Shown here: positions 1,246-13,427 of the stretch, piece after piece
Position numbering within the stretch: position 1 is the first letter of the stretch
How the letters are laid out: every line of letters begins with the position of its first letter
Assembly (NCBI GenBank): GCA_964615185.1
Contig: CAZTOS010000046.1
Coordinates: 1 to 19,355, forward strand
Origin: an uncultured Thermococci archaeon
GTDB lineage: Archaea; Methanobacteriota_B; Thermococci; Thermococcales; Thermococcaceae
Reading direction: 5' to 3'
DNA length: 19,355 nt
Notes under the pieces: model-generated
The model's database searches: none
The model's input: only the letters and a program-made list of their open reading frames with translations
What the model was told of the DNA's origin: nothing
Position numbers and translations under genes: made by a program

Positions 1246-1860
1246 GTGGTATTGGTGTCTAAAAGTAAGATTGGGGAAAATCTGGAGGAAATAAGGCTCC
1301 ATGGGCGGGGTGGTCAAGGAGTTGTCTTGTGTTCAGAGTTAATTGCCCGAGCTGCATTATATGATGGTAATTTTGCTAGAAGTTTTCCATGGTTTGGAAT
1401 AGCCCGGCGTGGAGCTCCCGTCACAGCATTCGTAGTCATAGGTGAAGGGGATAAAATTACACGAAGCATAGTTTATAATCCCAAATATGTTGTGGTGCTT
1501 GATCCGCACCTTCATAGGGTAATGCCCGAGGTTACTAATAACATCAGAGAGGGAGGTGTGTACATACAGAACTCCACTAAGGCTCCTGCTGAGCTCTTAA
1601 AAGAGCTAAAATTATGTGCTAAGCTAAGGACTATTGCCACAGTAGATGCTACGGGACTAGCCCTGAAGTACATGGGTGCTCCCATTCCTAACATAGCTAT
1701 GCTGGGTGCTTTTGCCAAGGTGACAAATCTCATAACGTTTGATTCTGCTATGAAGGCTATTAAAACCAGATTTTCTGAGAATGTTTGGGAAAAGTACCTA
1801 AAATGCTTTGAAGCCGGATATAAAAAGGTGTATATTGAGGTGTTAGAAAATGAAGAATGA
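1246..1860 (+). CDS. 2-oxoacid:ferredoxin oxidoreductase gamma subunit
   Basis: Motifs EIRLHGRGGQG, FPWFG-RRGAP and PNIAMLGA. The true start may be 1252 or 1255. Confidence 0.92.
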   Translation: MVLVSKSKIGENLEEIRLHGRGGQGVVLCSELIARAALYDGNFARSFPWFGIARRGAPVTAFVVIGEGDKITRSIVYNPKYVVVLDPHLHRVMPEVTNNIREGGVYIQNSTKAPAELLKELKLCAKLRTIATVDATGLALKYMGAPIPNIAMLGAFAKVTNLITFDSAMKAIKTRFSENVWEKYLKCFEAGYKKVYIEVLENEE

Positions 1861-2116
1861 AGAAGGGTATCCTGAAATTCCTGTAATTCCGGTAGGAGAA
1901 ATTGGATCCGAACCAGTGGCTCATTGGAGAGTTATGAAACCTGTTGTCAAGTATGAGATCTGCAAGAAGTGTTGGGTGTGTGTACAGTACTGTCCCGAAG
2001 GAGTGATTAAAGAATCGGAAAGTGGCTCCATAATAGACTACAGGTTCTGTAAGGGTTGTGGTATCTGTGCTAATGAATGTCCCGTAAAAGCAATCGTGAT
2101 GGTTAGGGAGGTGTGA
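1850..2116 (+). CDS. 2-oxoacid:ferredoxin oxidoreductase delta subunit (2x[4Fe-4S])
   Basis: WRVMKPVV, CKKCWVCVQYCP and CKGCGICANECP ferredoxin motifs. Overlaps the gamma gene. Confidence 0.93.
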   Translation: MKNEEGYPEIPVIPVGEIGSEPVAHWRVMKPVVKYEICKKCWVCVQYCPEGVIKESESGSIIDYRFCKGCGICANECPVKAIVMVREV

Positions 2117-2122
2117 GGTATA

Positions 2123-4225
2123 ATGGGAAAGCTTGAATTACTTTCAGGTAATAAAGCAGTAGCATATGGTGCTAAACTCTCCAGGGTGCAAGTGGTTTCA
2201 GCATATCCAATAACACCTCAAACGCCCATAGTTGAATATATAGCCGAATTCATTGCCAATGGCGAGTTAGATGCTGAGTACATACATCCCGAAGGAGAAC
2301 ACTCGGCAATAGCTGCAGCGCTTGGTGCCGCAATAGGGGGCGCAAGAGCTTTTACGGCAACATGCTCTCAAGGATTGGGTTATAGTTTTGAAGTCATAGC
2401 CCAAGCACCTGCGTACAGAGCACCACTCGTGATGGCTATTGCCAATAGAACATTAGGATGGTATTGGAGCGTAGCCAGCGATTACTCAGACACGATGACC
2501 ACGAGAGACCTTGGATGGATTCAATTCTATGCTGAGAGCTGTCAAGAGTGCCTCGATGGCGTGATTCAGATGTATAAGATTGCTGAAGATGAAAGAGTTT
2601 TGTTGCCGGGCATGGTGTGCTTAGATGGCTTCCACCTTTCACATTCTTCAGAACCTGTTAACATACCAGATCAGCAAGAAGTGGATGACTACCTACCTCC
2701 GAGGCAGATATACGAACATACGACTGACCCAACAGAGTCTGAAGGTTACATACTTCCCTCATTGCCCGTGCATTTGCACACTACATATAGAAAGATATTT
2801 GAAGACGTCATGCAAAGAGCTAAGGAGGTCATCTATGAAGCTACCAAAGAGTTTAGTGAAAGGTTTGGAAGAGATACCTACGGGCTTGTAGAGGAGTACC
2901 ACACCGATGGTGCAGAGTTGTTGCTTGTTACAATGGGGTCCATGTCAACAGCAGCTAAAAGAGCCATTGATAGACTGCGTGGCGAAGGAGTTAAAGTGGG
3001 ATTGCTAAGGGTGAGGTTCTTTAGACCCTTCCCTTCTAAGGAGCTACTTGAAGTGGTTAAGAGTAATGACGTTAAAGCCGTAGGGGTTGTTAATAGGGCG
3101 ATAAGTCACGGAACTTCGATGGATCCTTTAGGTATTGAGACTACTGCAACCTTATATGAACTCAAGAATAGACCCAATATAATCAATTTCATAGCCGGAA
3201 TGGGCGGAGGTGATGTTTCAATAAGGGACTTTGAGAGCATGGTGAACAGGCTAACAAATACGCTGAACAAGGAGAACGTGAGGGAGACTGTATATGTGGA
3301 ACGTCCTATAAAAATAAGCAAGCCATCAGTAACATTTAAGGACGTTACATATTGCCCTGGATCCCAGCTTTGCTCTGGTTGTGGTGCCGCTTTAGCTATG
3401 AGACATATACTCAGGATCTTGGGTAAGAACTCGGTGTTAGTGTTCCCTCCAAACTGCGTTTCAGCTTCTTTGGCAATGCACTTCCCCAGCAGTTGGATTG
3501 GTGTTCCCTGTGTCCTAGCTAATTATGCAGCTGCTGCAGCGTATGCGAGGGGTCTTAAAAGAGCATACAAATATAGAGGTAAGAAAGTTTGCGTTACAGT
3601 TATAGCTGGGGACGGCTGTACTGCTGACATAGGACTGCAATCTCTATCTTCAGCTGCCGAGAGCAATGAGCCAATAATATGGATCAACTACGACAACGAG
3701 GCCTATATGAACACAGGCATTCAGAGAAGCGGTACCACTCCATTAAAGGCCTGGACAACAACAACACCTAGTGGAGTTAGGTGGCACGGCAAGAAAGAGC
3801 TTCCTAAGGACCTGATATCGATTATGATGGCTCATAGAACACCGTATATAGCAACAGCGTCTCTGGCATTCATACAGGATTTTGAAACTAAGCTGAAAAA
3901 GGCTATGGAGGTTGTAAAGAAGGGCGAGGGGCTGGCATACATCCACATACAAACCCCATGTCCAACGGGCTGGAGGTTCTCTGAAAGCAAGACTGTTGAA
4001 ATAGCTAAGTTAGCAGTGCTGAGTGGCATGTGGCCTCTTCTCGAAGTGGACCATGGAATCTTTAAGTTAACTCTCAAGCCGTCTAAGTTAAGACCAGTTG
4101 CCGAGTATATTAAGTTGCAGGGGAGGTTTAGGCACTTAACTGATGAAGATGTTGCTGAAATCCAGGAGTTCATTGACAAACGCTGGAAGAGGTTGCTTGA
4201 GTTAGATGGTAAAACCATATGGTGA
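2123..4225 (+). CDS. 2-oxoacid:ferredoxin oxidoreductase, fused alpha+beta subunit
   Basis: The N-terminal ~395 aa is alpha (SGNKAVA, AYPITPQT, EGEHSA, ATCSQGL, RFFRPFP). The C-terminal ~300 aa is beta (CSGCG, TPP motif GDG...YDNEAYMNTGIQRS, PCPTGW, QGRFRHL). Single uninterrupted ORF. Confidence 0.92.
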   Translation: MGKLELLSGNKAVAYGAKLSRVQVVSAYPITPQTPIVEYIAEFIANGELDAEYIHPEGEHSAIAAALGAAIGGARAFTATCSQGLGYSFEVIAQAPAYRAPLVMAIANRTLGWYWSVASDYSDTMTTRDLGWIQFYAESCQECLDGVIQMYKIAEDERVLLPGMVCLDGFHLSHSSEPVNIPDQQEVDDYLPPRQIYEHTTDPTESEGYILPSLPVHLHTTYRKIFEDVMQRAKEVIYEATKEFSERFGRDTYGLVEEYHTDGAELLLVTMGSMSTAAKRAIDRLRGEGVKVGLLRVRFFRPFPSKELLEVVKSNDVKAVGVVNRAISHGTSMDPLGIETTATLYELKNRPNIINFIAGMGGGDVSIRDFESMVNRLTNTLNKENVRETVYVERPIKISKPSVTFKDVTYCPGSQLCSGCGAALAMRHILRILGKNSVLVFPPNCVSASLAMHFPSSWIGVPCVLANYAAAAAYARGLKRAYKYRGKKVCVTVIAGDGCTADIGLQSLSSAAESNEPIIWINYDNEAYMNTGIQRSGTTPLKAWTTTTPSGVRWHGKKELPKDLISIMMAHRTPYIATASLAFIQDFETKLKKAMEVVKKGEGLAYIHIQTPCPTGWRFSESKTVEIAKLAVLSGMWPLLEVDHGIFKLTLKPSKLRPVAEYIKLQGRFRHLTDEDVAEIQEFIDKRWKRLLELDGKTIW

Positions 4226-4251
4226 CATATTAGGTCTTTGGAGGGCCGATT

Positions 4252-5679
4252 ATGGCCGAGTTTAATGTGGATAGCTTAAGATATTTGTTTGAGCCTAATA
4301 GCGTTGCGGTTATTGGAGCCAGCAGAGATCCAAAGGCATGGGGACATGTAATCCTAAAGAATATCATTAGTTACGGTTTTGAAGGGAAAGTGTATCCGAT
4401 AAACCCTAGAGCAGATTCTTTGCTCGGATTAAAGTGCTATCCAGATATTAGAACAGTGCCTAATGATGTGGACTTAGCCATCATTGCTGTACCAGCAAAG
4501 ATAGTTCCAAGTGTCATGGAGGCGTGTGTGGAGAAAGGGGTTAAGGTAGCGGTTGTGATTACTGCAGGATTTAGTGAAATAGGTCCAGAGGGAGAGAAGC
4601 TCGAAAAGGAAGTTGTCAAAATCGCGAGGAGAGGGGGCATTAGAATTGTAGGTCCTAACTGCATGGGGATATTTGTGGCAAAAAGCAAACTTAACGCAGC
4701 ATTTACGGCAATAGCGCCCAAACCCGGAAAGATAGCATTTATCTCACAGTCAGGTGCTTTTGCAGGCACTATGTTATACTGGGCAACTATGAGGGATATA
4801 GGATTCAGTGCAGCAATATCAGTGGGCAATCAAGCCGATTTGGAATTGAGCGACTATTTAATGTACCTAGCTGATGATGAAACGACCAAAGTTACCATAG
4901 CATATATTGAGGGGGTTAAGGATGGCAGAAAATTCATGAAGGCATTAGAGTATTACACGGCAAAGAAACCATTGGTGGTCATGAAGCTGGGGCGCACCTC
5001 AAGCGGTGCCAAGGCGGCATCATCGCACACTGCAGCCATGGTGGGAAGAGATGAGCTCTATGATGTGGTGTTCAAGAAATATGGAGTTATCCGGGTTTAT
5101 GAATTTGATGATATGTTTAACGTAGCTCGAGCATTTGCAAACCTTCCGCTGCCAAAGGGCAATAGAGTGGGGGTTGTATCCGCTGGAGGGGGATGGTGTG
5201 TGGAGGCTTCTGATGCTCTTGAAAGCTTGGGGCTTAAGCTCCCTCCTTTACCAGAGCATGTGATAAGGAAGATGGATGAAATTCTCCCTCCCTTCTGGAA
5301 CAGAAGAAACCCTATGGATCTCGTGGCTACTATAGATCCAGAACCTTTTAAAATTGCCACAGAACTTTTGATGAAAGAGGATCGTTTTGACATATTAATG
5401 CTTATAGGTTACGGAAACTTTGGTAGAATATCCAACTTGCCGTTCATTATACCTAAGGAAGATGCAGTAGCCAAGGAAATAGCTGACCTTGTTAAGAAAT
5501 ATAAAAAACCCCTCGTTGCTGTCAACGTATTTGGCAAGGAGTTTAGCAATGTCAAGGTTTTTGAGGAAAACGGTGTTCCGGTATACCTGTCCATCGAGAA
5601 GGCCGCAAAGGTCGTGAAGGCTTTAGCTGACTATGCACACTACTTGAAATCACTGGAGGAAAGGAAACAAAGCCAGTAG
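4252..5679 (+). CDS. ADP-forming acyl-CoA synthetase alpha subunit (CoA-binding)
   Basis: Motifs PNSVAVIGAS, GPNCMG, FISQSGA, SVGNQAD, phospho-His motif SSHTA and NPMDL. No beta subunit is adjacent. Confidence 0.92.
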   Translation: MAEFNVDSLRYLFEPNSVAVIGASRDPKAWGHVILKNIISYGFEGKVYPINPRADSLLGLKCYPDIRTVPNDVDLAIIAVPAKIVPSVMEACVEKGVKVAVVITAGFSEIGPEGEKLEKEVVKIARRGGIRIVGPNCMGIFVAKSKLNAAFTAIAPKPGKIAFISQSGAFAGTMLYWATMRDIGFSAAISVGNQADLELSDYLMYLADDETTKVTIAYIEGVKDGRKFMKALEYYTAKKPLVVMKLGRTSSGAKAASSHTAAMVGRDELYDVVFKKYGVIRVYEFDDMFNVARAFANLPLPKGNRVGVVSAGGGWCVEASDALESLGLKLPPLPEHVIRKMDEILPPFWNRRNPMDLVATIDPEPFKIATELLMKEDRFDILMLIGYGNFGRISNLPFIIPKEDAVAKEIADLVKKYKKPLVAVNVFGKEFSNVKVFEENGVPVYLSIEKAAKVVKALADYAHYLKSLEERKQSQ

Positions 5680-8037: not shown

Positions 8038-8638
8038 ATGATGCTGAAATATCTGGCAATAGGTGTCATGTTTCCCGTACTGGCAATTCTGTTTACGAAG
8101 TATCTCGGAGAAGAATACGCTTGGGTAAATAGAAAAATAATCCACTTCAGCAGTGTTCCTGCAATATTGTTCTTTAGAGAAGGATTAGTAACCGGAAAGG
8201 AGCTTGCCGCAGTGGTTTGCAGTTGGACAGCTATTAACTCATCTCATGAACAAAGAACTATCATGGTATCAGATAAAAGACAACTATGGGGAAGTGTTTT
8301 ACTGTATAATGTTCTCAGCCATGGCACTCTTCATGGATGTTAACTATGCGTCAGCAATAATGCTTGTAATGGCGGTAAGCGATGGAATAACTGGTGTTCT
8401 GAGGTTCTATTACTTCAGAAAGAATGGCTTTAACGTCAAGCTCAGAAAGCATTGGATAGGGAGTGTTGGCTGCATCGTAAGTGCAGTCATAATAGCCTTC
8501 CTAATTCTACCACAGTTAAACATCTTAATGAAAGTCGCATGGTCCGTAATTTTAATGCTTGCAGAATACCAAAAAGTAATTGATGACAATGTAGCTGTGC
8601 CAGTAGCCGCTGTCCTGATAAAACCACTTTTCTTGTGA
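8038..8638 (+). pseudogene. Frameshifted dolichol/phytol kinase-like (CTP-transferase family) membrane protein
   Basis: The N-half (8038 frame) has RKIIH. The C-half (8204 frame) has NYGEVFY, MAVSDGITG, KHWIGS and DDNVAVP. The frames switch near 8210-8220. Could be a real lesion or a sequencing error. Confidence 0.75.
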
Positions 8639-12416: not shown

Positions 12417-12529
12417 CTTAGGAAAACTGCTACAAGTTTTAAATACAAAATGTTATTAAACTGTTATGGAGGTTGAGATTATAAATAAACTTGTTGAAAC
12501 AAGATATACAGGCCAAAGAAGGATACAGA

Positions 12530-12724
12530 GAAAATGAGTTGGAACAATCCGTTCTGGTTATCCGCTACTTTTAAAACATGTGAAACTATCGTAGCGGATA
12601 ACCTTCCCTCCTCCCTTCTTCATTGGAGGGCTTTTGGGGGGAACGGAAACTCCCCACATCTTCAGGACTTTCAGCAGTCCCCATTCGGGCTTAAAACCCC
12701 ACATATCGGGGACTACCACATCAC
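12530..12724 (-). ncRNA. Putative TnpB omegaRNA (reRNA): ~170 nt scaffold plus 3' guide from flanking DNA
   Basis: TATA TTTATATA (12752-12745) with BRE-like CGTAAT. Consecutive GC-rich stems GUAGUCCCC/GGGGACUGC, GGGGA/UCCCC, CCCUCC/GGAGGG and a 13-bp terminal stem, ending at the IS right end. Confidence 0.55.
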
Positions 12725-12811
12725 AATAAGGTTCACCACAAAACTATATAAAAATTACGAAAAACAAAAGTCAGCAAATGTTTCGCTTGTTGCTATCTAC
12801 GAAACAGTCCC
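12549..12811 (-). mobile_element. Non-autonomous (MITE-like) IS607-family/TnpB-derived element
   Basis: GG at both ends on the minus strand. Right end CAGAAC|GG is preceded by a 13-bp perfect hairpin (12556-12568/12591-12603). It encodes a TnpB-like C-terminal tail LKMWGVSVPPKSPPMKKGGGKVIRYD..G* (recognised from memory). The left end has a 7-bp IR TGTTTCG/CGAAACA. The same right end recurs at 19303. The left boundary is uncertain by at least 1 nt. Confidence 0.75.
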
Positions 12812-12845
12812 ATTAAGAATGGATGCTCATAAGAAGTTTAATTGT

Positions 12846-13427
12846 TCAAAGCTGAAGTATAATTGATATTAGAAATGGAGCTATTGCCGTCAGGATAAAT
12901 CCATGAACAAAAGCAATTATTGTAACCTCACTCCCTCCAAACTTTACGATAACAGGAAGAGTGGAATCCATGGTTGTTGCACCACCCATTGAAATCGCAA
13001 GTTCTTTTGGTATTCTCTTAATGGCAATGGGATAGAACAAAATCGTTAGAATTTCTCTTGTGAGATTAGCTAAAAACCCAATCACGCCATAGACGGCGGA
13101 ATACTGAGCTAAAAGTGGCCCCGTCAGTGAATACCATCCAAAACCCGCCGAAACTGCTAACGCCCACTTTATACGAAGACCAAGAAGAAAAGATGCCAAA
13201 AGTCCACCCATTAGGGAGCCCATTACAGTGGCGAGCGGTAAAATGAGTGCTATTTTTCCGAGCTTCCTGATTTCTTTAATTCCTTTGCTCTTTCCCAGAT
13301 CAACCCCAATTATAAAGATTAAGAGATATAGCATCACCTCATATAGATTGCCAAAATGGAAAGATGAATACTTCCCAACAAGTAGACCAATAATTAGTGA
13401 GCCCAATACAAAATACAAAAAGCTCAT
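12846..13427 (-). CDS. LysO (DUF340)-family lysine exporter-like membrane protein
   Basis: Motifs GFGWYSL, FLANLTRE, GGATTMD and AFVHGFIL. Confidence 0.88.
   Translation of the reverse strand: MSFLYFVLGSLIIGLLVGKYSSFHFGNLYEVMLYLLIFIIGVDLGKSKGIKEIRKLGKIALILPLATVMGSLMGGLLASFLLGLRIKWALAVSAGFGWYSLTGPLLAQYSAVYGVIGFLANLTREILTILFYPIAIKRIPKELAISMGGATTMDSTLPVIVKFGGSEVTIIAFVHGFILTAIAPFLISIILQL

Follow-up and report, generated by a model that had tools for sequence, protein, structure and literature searches.

A 259-bp IS607-type mini-element of the Thermococcaceae as a candidate stand-alone omegaRNA gene of the sRk48/sRk52 family

The DNA analysed here (hereafter the window) is a stretch of 19,355 nucleotides from an uncultured archaeon of the Thermococcaceae, and the genome assembly that holds it (hereafter named G000) is 95.6% complete and consists of 138 contigs. 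Positions 1246-5679 of the window contain what we take to be a 2-oxoacid:ferredoxin oxidoreductase cluster followed by the gene of an ADP-forming acyl-CoA synthetase subunit. The alpha and beta subunits of this oxidoreductase are apparently fused in a 700-aa ORF (2123-4225), and a membrane-protein gene at 8038-8638 seems to be split into two overlapping frames of 101 and 144 aa, possibly by a frameshift. Further along, between genes presumed to encode a lysO-like membrane protein (12846-13427) and ribosomal protein L44e, an element of 259 bp that codes for no protein spans 12807-12549 on the minus strand, and it is confirmed in substance as a non-autonomous IS607 mini-element (mini) with a tnpB 3' end. 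The lysO-rpl44e interval measures 330 bp in the window versus 960-1490 bp with other genes in 7/7 genus relatives; positions 12500-12834 are without the small HTH gene seen after lysO in all seven and without the rubrerythrin-like gene present in two assemblies (G002 and G004). The insertion is absent from all seven relatives, among which the empty site of the window copy itself was not found, and because the short flanks give no significant alignment, the loss of the lysO-rpl44e genes cannot be ascribed to the element.

All parts of the element are read on the minus strand. The left host flank is GGGA (12808-12811), and in the family as a whole a consensus GGG precedes the left end: G stands at -3, -2 and -1 in 51, 52 and 49 of 53 minis and in 14/14 full-length parents, the window copy being one of the four minis with A at -1 (GGA, not the usual GGG). 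The element starts with CTG at 12807, which opens the IS607 left end (CTGTTTC...ACATTT, 12776-12807), followed by a BRE/TATA promoter (12745-12759) with TTTATATA at 12752-12745. The approximate transcription start predicted at 12724 was transferred from the mapped 5' end of sRk52 (PMC3124441) via the alignment of locus L008. Four hairpins follow, namely P0 (GGTAGTCCCCG/TGGGGACTGCT, 12717-12673), P1 (12638-12655), P2 with a K-loop motif (RAUGA...GA, in the window copy AAUGA-AGAAGG-GA; 12606-12630), and the terminal P3, which has 13 bp in the window copy (12556-12603). A tnpB 3' coding remnant (LKMWG...KSSG*, 12558-12665) overlaps this scaffold; frame 2 of the element translates to LKMWGVSVPPKSPPMKKGGGKVIRYDSFTCFKSSG*, and over 42 aa this peptide is 81% identical to the C-terminal end of a complete IS607 TnpB. 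The right end CAGAACG(G) (CAGAACGG, 12549-12556) borders host DNA that varies among copies, the would-be guide ATTGTTCCAACTCATT (12533-12548), of which 14 nt (12548-12535) precede a T-run starting at 12534. The promoter, stacked stems, 13-bp hairpin, terminus, flank and T-run of an earlier sequence-only reading are thus each present, and its calls of an IS607-type mini-element of ~260 bp and of a Thermococcales TnpB C-terminus within the stems are borne out. The T-run that it listed is incidental, only 10/89 copies having one in the 20 nt next to the right end. At thresholds up to E = 5 the element matched no Rfam model, HgcC and sot RNAs included, and a promoter/terminator scan, built on a sigma-70 model whose reach does not extend to archaeal promoters, detected no terminator.

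BLAST of G000 against itself recovered five further copies, 77-81% identical to the window copy and with unrelated flanks, which makes six in all, so that the copies with different flanks expected by the sequence-only reading exist, as do full tnpA-tnpB parents. Matches, in a count that takes in full-length elements, were obtained from 61 of the 96 other same-family genomes and from 0/24 genomes outside the family. Right ends read CAGAA and then CGG in 84 of 88 cases in a search that did not demand CGG, and the flanks diverge just beyond. The empty orthologous sites of the G000 copies on contigs C4, C8 and C113 are TGGGG; for the C4 copy, inserted in a ferredoxin gene, three of five relatives have TGGGG and the other two GGAG. 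Filled sites show GGG at the left and GG at the right, so one G is gained, and the insertion at a G-rich site takes place without target duplication, as in IS607. At the protein level, once the self-hits L027, L084, L182 and L203 had been removed, seven of eight non-self homology hits fit the one-G gain and one fits a GG gain, and a homology-free reading-frame test of the junction favoured no option clearly (8/6/6). The accessible text of PMC6188088 gives a GG core as the site of exchange in published IS607 elements, and that of bioRxiv 2023.11.20.567912 describes tolerance of mismatched cores by CboIStron. In all DNA-level cases the flank now found after AACGG follows four purines, and a GGGG-like TAM is therefore predicted.

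Several insertions deserve description in their own right. The C4 copy (G000:C4:27263-27523, L076) splits the ferredoxin gene within its CIGDAIC motif, with two more ferredoxin-like genes flanking, and the copy at G000:C13:3017-3277 (L077) bridges a deletion of 735 bp as measured in relatives, by which most of a membrane-protein gene is gone. At L044:769-862 (G029), two right-end hairpins lie back to back in opposite orientation, ~900 bp from a truncated mini.

Full-length parents point to the origin of these parts. Elements of 1.85 kb at loci L041-L043 share both ends with the mini and encode a 202-aa TnpA (Resolvase and HTH) and a 392-aa TnpB (TNB and OrfB_IS605 domains); the window copy matches L041 with 97% identity in its final 119 bases and 89% in its initial 35. 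The parent TnpB retains D-E-D motifs, which we take to be the three acidic RuvC residues. Both ends being common to a parent with a serine-recombinase TnpA and a TnpB, the mini belongs to IS607. In a second parent subtype of ~1.44 kb, tnpA is replaced by an RHH-like ORF of ~54 aa, which scores below the cut-off for Pfam RHH_6; the 14 parents with a left end returned by one script comprise nine of the tnpA type and five of the RHH type. IS607 ends around an RHH-like gene and tnpB were observed at L020:1510-2845, L045:1120-2563, L235, L245, L246 and L252, where the RHH gene sits in the place of tnpA and tnpB shares ~85% identity with its counterpart in tnpA-tnpB elements, and other, distant tnpB genes of G000 (C1, C27, C42 and C56) also adjoin RHH-like genes. 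Another IS607 copy (L027:218-1622, G025) has an internal tnpA deletion and an in-frame tnpB stop, a decay intermediate.

The TATA box lies ~32 nt from the left end in tnpA-type parents and ~57 nt in RHH-type parents; in minis this distance is 57-60 nt in 45/51 cases and ~58 nt in the window copy. Because TATA spacing and alignment match, the mini promoter is assigned to the left end of the tnpA-less RHH-tnpB subtype. The P0 hairpin already exists in the parent tnpB, within the zinc-finger codons (CPxCG..LSPNG), and in minis a second deletion, of ~70 nt, has brought a rewritten P0 up to the scaffold, a gap relative to IS607 orfB that is also displayed by an alignment in PMC3124441 (2011). The sequence-only reading had derived the cassette from one internal deletion that put the left-end promoter before the omegaRNA together with an added 5' hairpin: the left-end promoter stands, two deletions and the spacing of a tnpA-less RHH-tnpB element replace the single event, and the hairpin was remodelled and not added. 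Judged from the shared junctions, the ancestor would have been a tnpA-less IS607 derivative consisting of left end, promoter, small RHH gene and tnpB, from which a first deletion would have taken all the DNA from the promoter as far as the zinc-finger hairpin P0, and a second the ~70 nt that separated P0 from the scaffold.

By sequence similarity, the RNA of the window copy is a member of the sRk48/sRk52 ncRNA family described in PMC3124441. L008, which equals the sRk52 row of supplementary file 6 of that paper letter for letter by eye, is identical to the window copy at 203 of 259 bases, with similarity extending over P0-P3; the distance from BRE/TATA to P0 is 45 nt in the window copy and 44 nt in L008 and L202, and the K-loop in P2 is present by motif. 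The available portion of PMC3124441 reports Northern signals of 130/190 nt for sRk48/sRk52, transcription beginning 22 nt downstream of BRE/TATA, processing to a 130-nt form that comprises P1-P3 and has variable 3' ends, L7Ae binding of sRk52 in a gel shift that was ascribed to the K-loop in P2, and resemblance to the 3' end of IS607 orfB. The earlier claim of an own promoter is thus upheld by homologues transcribed from the same promoter, and an excerpt of PMC4615843 links the family to tnpB sense transcripts. No paper that re-reads sRk48/sRk52 as an omegaRNA was found in the open-access literature; after 2012, among the matches listed, only PMC4615843 contains 'sRk52', and a term search of the text at hand of PMC12558985, PMC3849170, PMC4247193 and PMC10278001 returned nothing on this family. 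Five public RNA runs held at most 5% of the words, and their contigs covered the scaffolds of relatives, not the flanks of the window copy. Deep X1/X2 coverage over scaffold pieces was set aside, those runs being marked as probably DNA and the elements as those of relatives.

From P1 to the right end the window copy measures 114 nt, so the 130-nt form would fit the scaffold plus ~16 nt of flank; against this, the long published clones (177/180 nt), as far as their description goes, end ~1-4 nt past the right end when counted from the mapped start. Clones without a full guide, together with the strong own promoter, would suit an abundant scaffold RNA, with or without a guide, acting as a decoy that soaks up the TnpB of invading full elements and lowers their homing to the benefit of the host or of competing minis. 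We consider this improbable, since copies lie at unrelated sites and disrupt genes, as with selfish elements, and at the four loci checked no copy was seen to occupy the same site in different species.

The 201-nt RNA folds at z = -4.43, with 0/200 shuffles equally stable. Covariation was assessed on an alignment (A2) of 57 of the 59 distinct minis, L019 and L044 being left out, in which 95% of cells pair and 17 pairs have two-sided changes, counts inflated by relatedness among minis; 0/500 shuffles reach this pairing and slid controls pair at 33-51%. A conserved RNA structure, as in stand-alone omegaRNAs, is present. In P3, 8/12 pairs have changes on both sides, and the variants of P2/P3 are common to minis and parents, from which their covariation may have been inherited. 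P0 is the cleaner case for selection on RNA: six of 11 outer pairs have two-sided changes in a mini-specific sequence absent from parents (one pair is C-G in 27, U-A in 16 and U-G in 13 minis), the loop motif AAGCCCGAATG is kept in 54/57 minis although P0 no longer codes, and conservation reaches 0.99 at element positions 121-130, the P0 loop, far from both ends. A strict TATA falls in a fixed window in 44/61 minis versus a 2% background in the flanks, and the K-loop motif is found in 55/57 minis and 26/26 parents. Moreover, CCGTTC of P1 (12646-12641 in the window) exactly complements the terminal GAACGG (12554-12549) in 51/57 minis and 25/26 parents. A pseudoknot adjoining the guide occurs in other TnpB RNAs. 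On this complementarity, a pseudoknot between P1 and the right end is likely, with no compensatory change and in competition with half of P1. The accessible parts of the cited literature contain no kept promoter, covarying stems, right-end pseudoknot, near-invariant K-loop or one-G insertion gain.

The same features could belong to a plain MITE, its transcript a by-product and its promoter and hairpins inherited passengers without TnpB-dependent benefit, the promoter overlapping the ~70-80 nt that TnpA needs at the left end and the hairpins being refreshed by recombination with parents and stabilised by L7Ae. In the portion available of PMC6188088, the left-end stretch covered by IS1535 TnpA amounts to ~70-84 bp; minis are retained and transcribed in genomes that yielded no cognate tnpB, and scaffold types are common to minis and parents with a weak correlation between the 5' and 3' halves of minis (Spearman 0.16), as recombination gives. 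Exchange between minis and parents is also suggested by the 3' half of the window copy, which is nearer the full element of another genome (0.96) than any mini (0.90). This explanation is possible, though we hold it with less confidence than the one preferred below; the mini-specific two-sided changes and almost invariant loop of P0 speak against it, as does the TATA-P0 spacing, which is held at 43-46 nt in 47/56 minis.

As in stand-alone omegaRNAs, a scaffold homologous to the tnpB 3' end stops at the right end with a variable flank beyond, in agreement with the omegaRNA-like scaffold followed by flank DNA that had been claimed. The use of that flank as guide would follow the pattern of IS607 TnpB in the available text of bioRxiv 2023.11.20.567912. 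A compatible TnpB in the same genome, which such an RNA would need, was not found in the G000 assembly: its ten TNB-domain hits include none above 35% identity to the cognate TnpB over a long stretch, with 34% as the best full-length match and 0 at E<1e-60, so that loading in trans by TnpB from another copy, as had been suggested, has no visible partner there. A left end at a contig edge (G000:C62:14142-14180) is either a seventh copy or an unassembled parent. The only TnpA in G000 is 50% identical and comes from another, unrelated IS607 element, which runs off the contig end (G000:C11:42962-43746, L105). Cognate TnpB was found in 49 of the 96 other family genomes, and four mini-bearing genomes assembled into 1-2 contigs at 99% completeness (G007, G013, G024 and G027) yielded none. 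G013 holds a copy identical to the sRk52 row, and the published processing may hence not need TnpB. Where minis and parents reside together, the scaffold types match in 8/18 cases (permutation p = 0.40), and only G062 fits.

The six G000 guides have no GGG-flanked match with at most one mismatch in 12 nt in G000. A viral search returned 27 exact 16-nt matches, only one of them with TGGG and 18 nt; this match, 22 nt long, falls in a Mu-like prophage beside a bacterial mfd gene and was taken as chance, and a 19-nt match in a Rhizobium genome lacks a G-run. The search of genome and viruses thus gave no plausible target. Domesticated TnpB regulators are reported in the literature, and an RNA-guided regulator or defence guide for other loci had been among the original proposals. 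This is very improbable for an insertion that all seven genus relatives lack, for which the six G000 guides gave no TAM-flanked target in G000 and, as the one long viral match, an unrelated Mu-like prophage, and whose parent TnpB keeps its D-E-D motifs.

Considering these results together, we favour, with a probability of roughly 0.55, the reading that the IS607 mini-element is selfish and non-autonomous and doubles as the gene of a stand-alone omegaRNA; mobilisation by TnpA, loading by TnpB and homing would then proceed as follows. A cognate TnpA acting in trans would excise the element and insert it at G-rich sites (GGG^G), past mobility being implied by the many insertion sites. As in its homologues, the promoter would yield an RNA of ~180-190 nt that is trimmed to ~130 nt, covering P1-P3 with some flank, and bound by L7Ae at the K-loop. 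When a cognate TnpB is present, the RNA would be loaded in trans and direct cutting of the empty insertion site on sister chromosomes, whose repair would copy the element back; such TnpB-guided recopying would select for both promoter and fold, which would explain why they are kept. Gene insertions whose orthologous sites are empty in relatives (ferredoxin, C8 and C113) agree with the favoured reading. In the passages available, IS607 TnpB is described as cutting donor joints (bioRxiv 2023.11.20.567912), stand-alone omegaRNAs as acting in trans (PMC10691335, Altae-Tran 2023; PMC10055086, Meers 2023), and IS607 as moving in the form of double-stranded DNA (PMC6188088, bioRxiv 2023.11.20.567912), the conserved fold being seen nonetheless. 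The missing cognate tnpB in G000 and the four near-closed mini-bearing genomes, and the failure of minis overall to track co-resident parents, argue against the favoured reading. Because neither cognate gene, tnpA or tnpB, was found in G000, the window copy is probably an orphan for now.

Compared with known systems, the element is real and its kind is mostly known. The accessible sections on stand-alone omegaRNAs and PATE-like elements portray likewise protein-free, mobilised units with a flank-derived guide and a need for TnpB in trans; those of PMC10691335 and PMC10055086 are IS200/IS605-type with a Y1 transposase and hairpin ends, whereas the window element is of the IS607 (serine-recombinase) type and, relative to them, adds an archaeal TATA promoter, the P0 hairpin and the K-loop. 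The IS607 elements with TnpB, as far as described in the text at hand (CboIStron, bioRxiv 2023.11.20.567912; IS607/IS1535/ISC1926, PMC6188088; ISFba1, PMC11061315), share the parent with serine-recombinase TnpA and TnpB, the G-rich target and a scaffold ending in CGG. The minis differ from them in being without proteins and without an intron, and at GGGG sites the gain in most reconstructed insertions is a single G beyond CTG...AAC, not a full GG. Staphylothermus marinus MITEs of ~260 nt (PMC2678158) are of the same size class, archaeal, IS607-associated and gene-disrupting; no RNA is described in the part of that source available, and the likeness is one of description. The sRk48/sRk52 RNAs of Pyrococcus abyssi and other Thermococcales (Phok et al. 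2011) have the same BRE/TATA, P0-P3, K-loop and ~70-nt gap, and the accessible account in PMC3124441, which predates the omegaRNA concept, is without transposon ends, insertion sites, guide or pseudoknot. The notion of a protein-free guide-RNA cassette therefore agrees with the anatomy, and its novelty does not hold, as family and concept were already in print (PMC3124441, PMC10691335).

The finding gives the sRk48/sRk52 family, to which no function had been assigned in 2011, a concrete identity as complete IS607 minis carrying a candidate omegaRNA. More tentatively, sRk48/sRk52 might be natural genes, each under its own promoter, for the guide RNA of an IS607 TnpB from hyperthermophiles, forming an RNP with L7Ae bound at the near-invariant K-loop in which P0 serves as a loading or processing signal, kept by selection even after the surrounding coding sequence was deleted, and the target supplies a pseudoknot G; minis would then be guide-RNA parasites that bridge the gaps between visits of full elements. 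Full-text literature on TnpB together with L7Ae, as far as titles and abstract starts tell, held no paper on that subject. For work on a heat-stable compact nuclease, the family offers a minimal cassette for expression, a target predicted to be of GGGG type and cognate TnpBs from 49 genomes, and if the L7Ae K-loop matters, L7Ae would be a host cofactor of the TnpB RNP.
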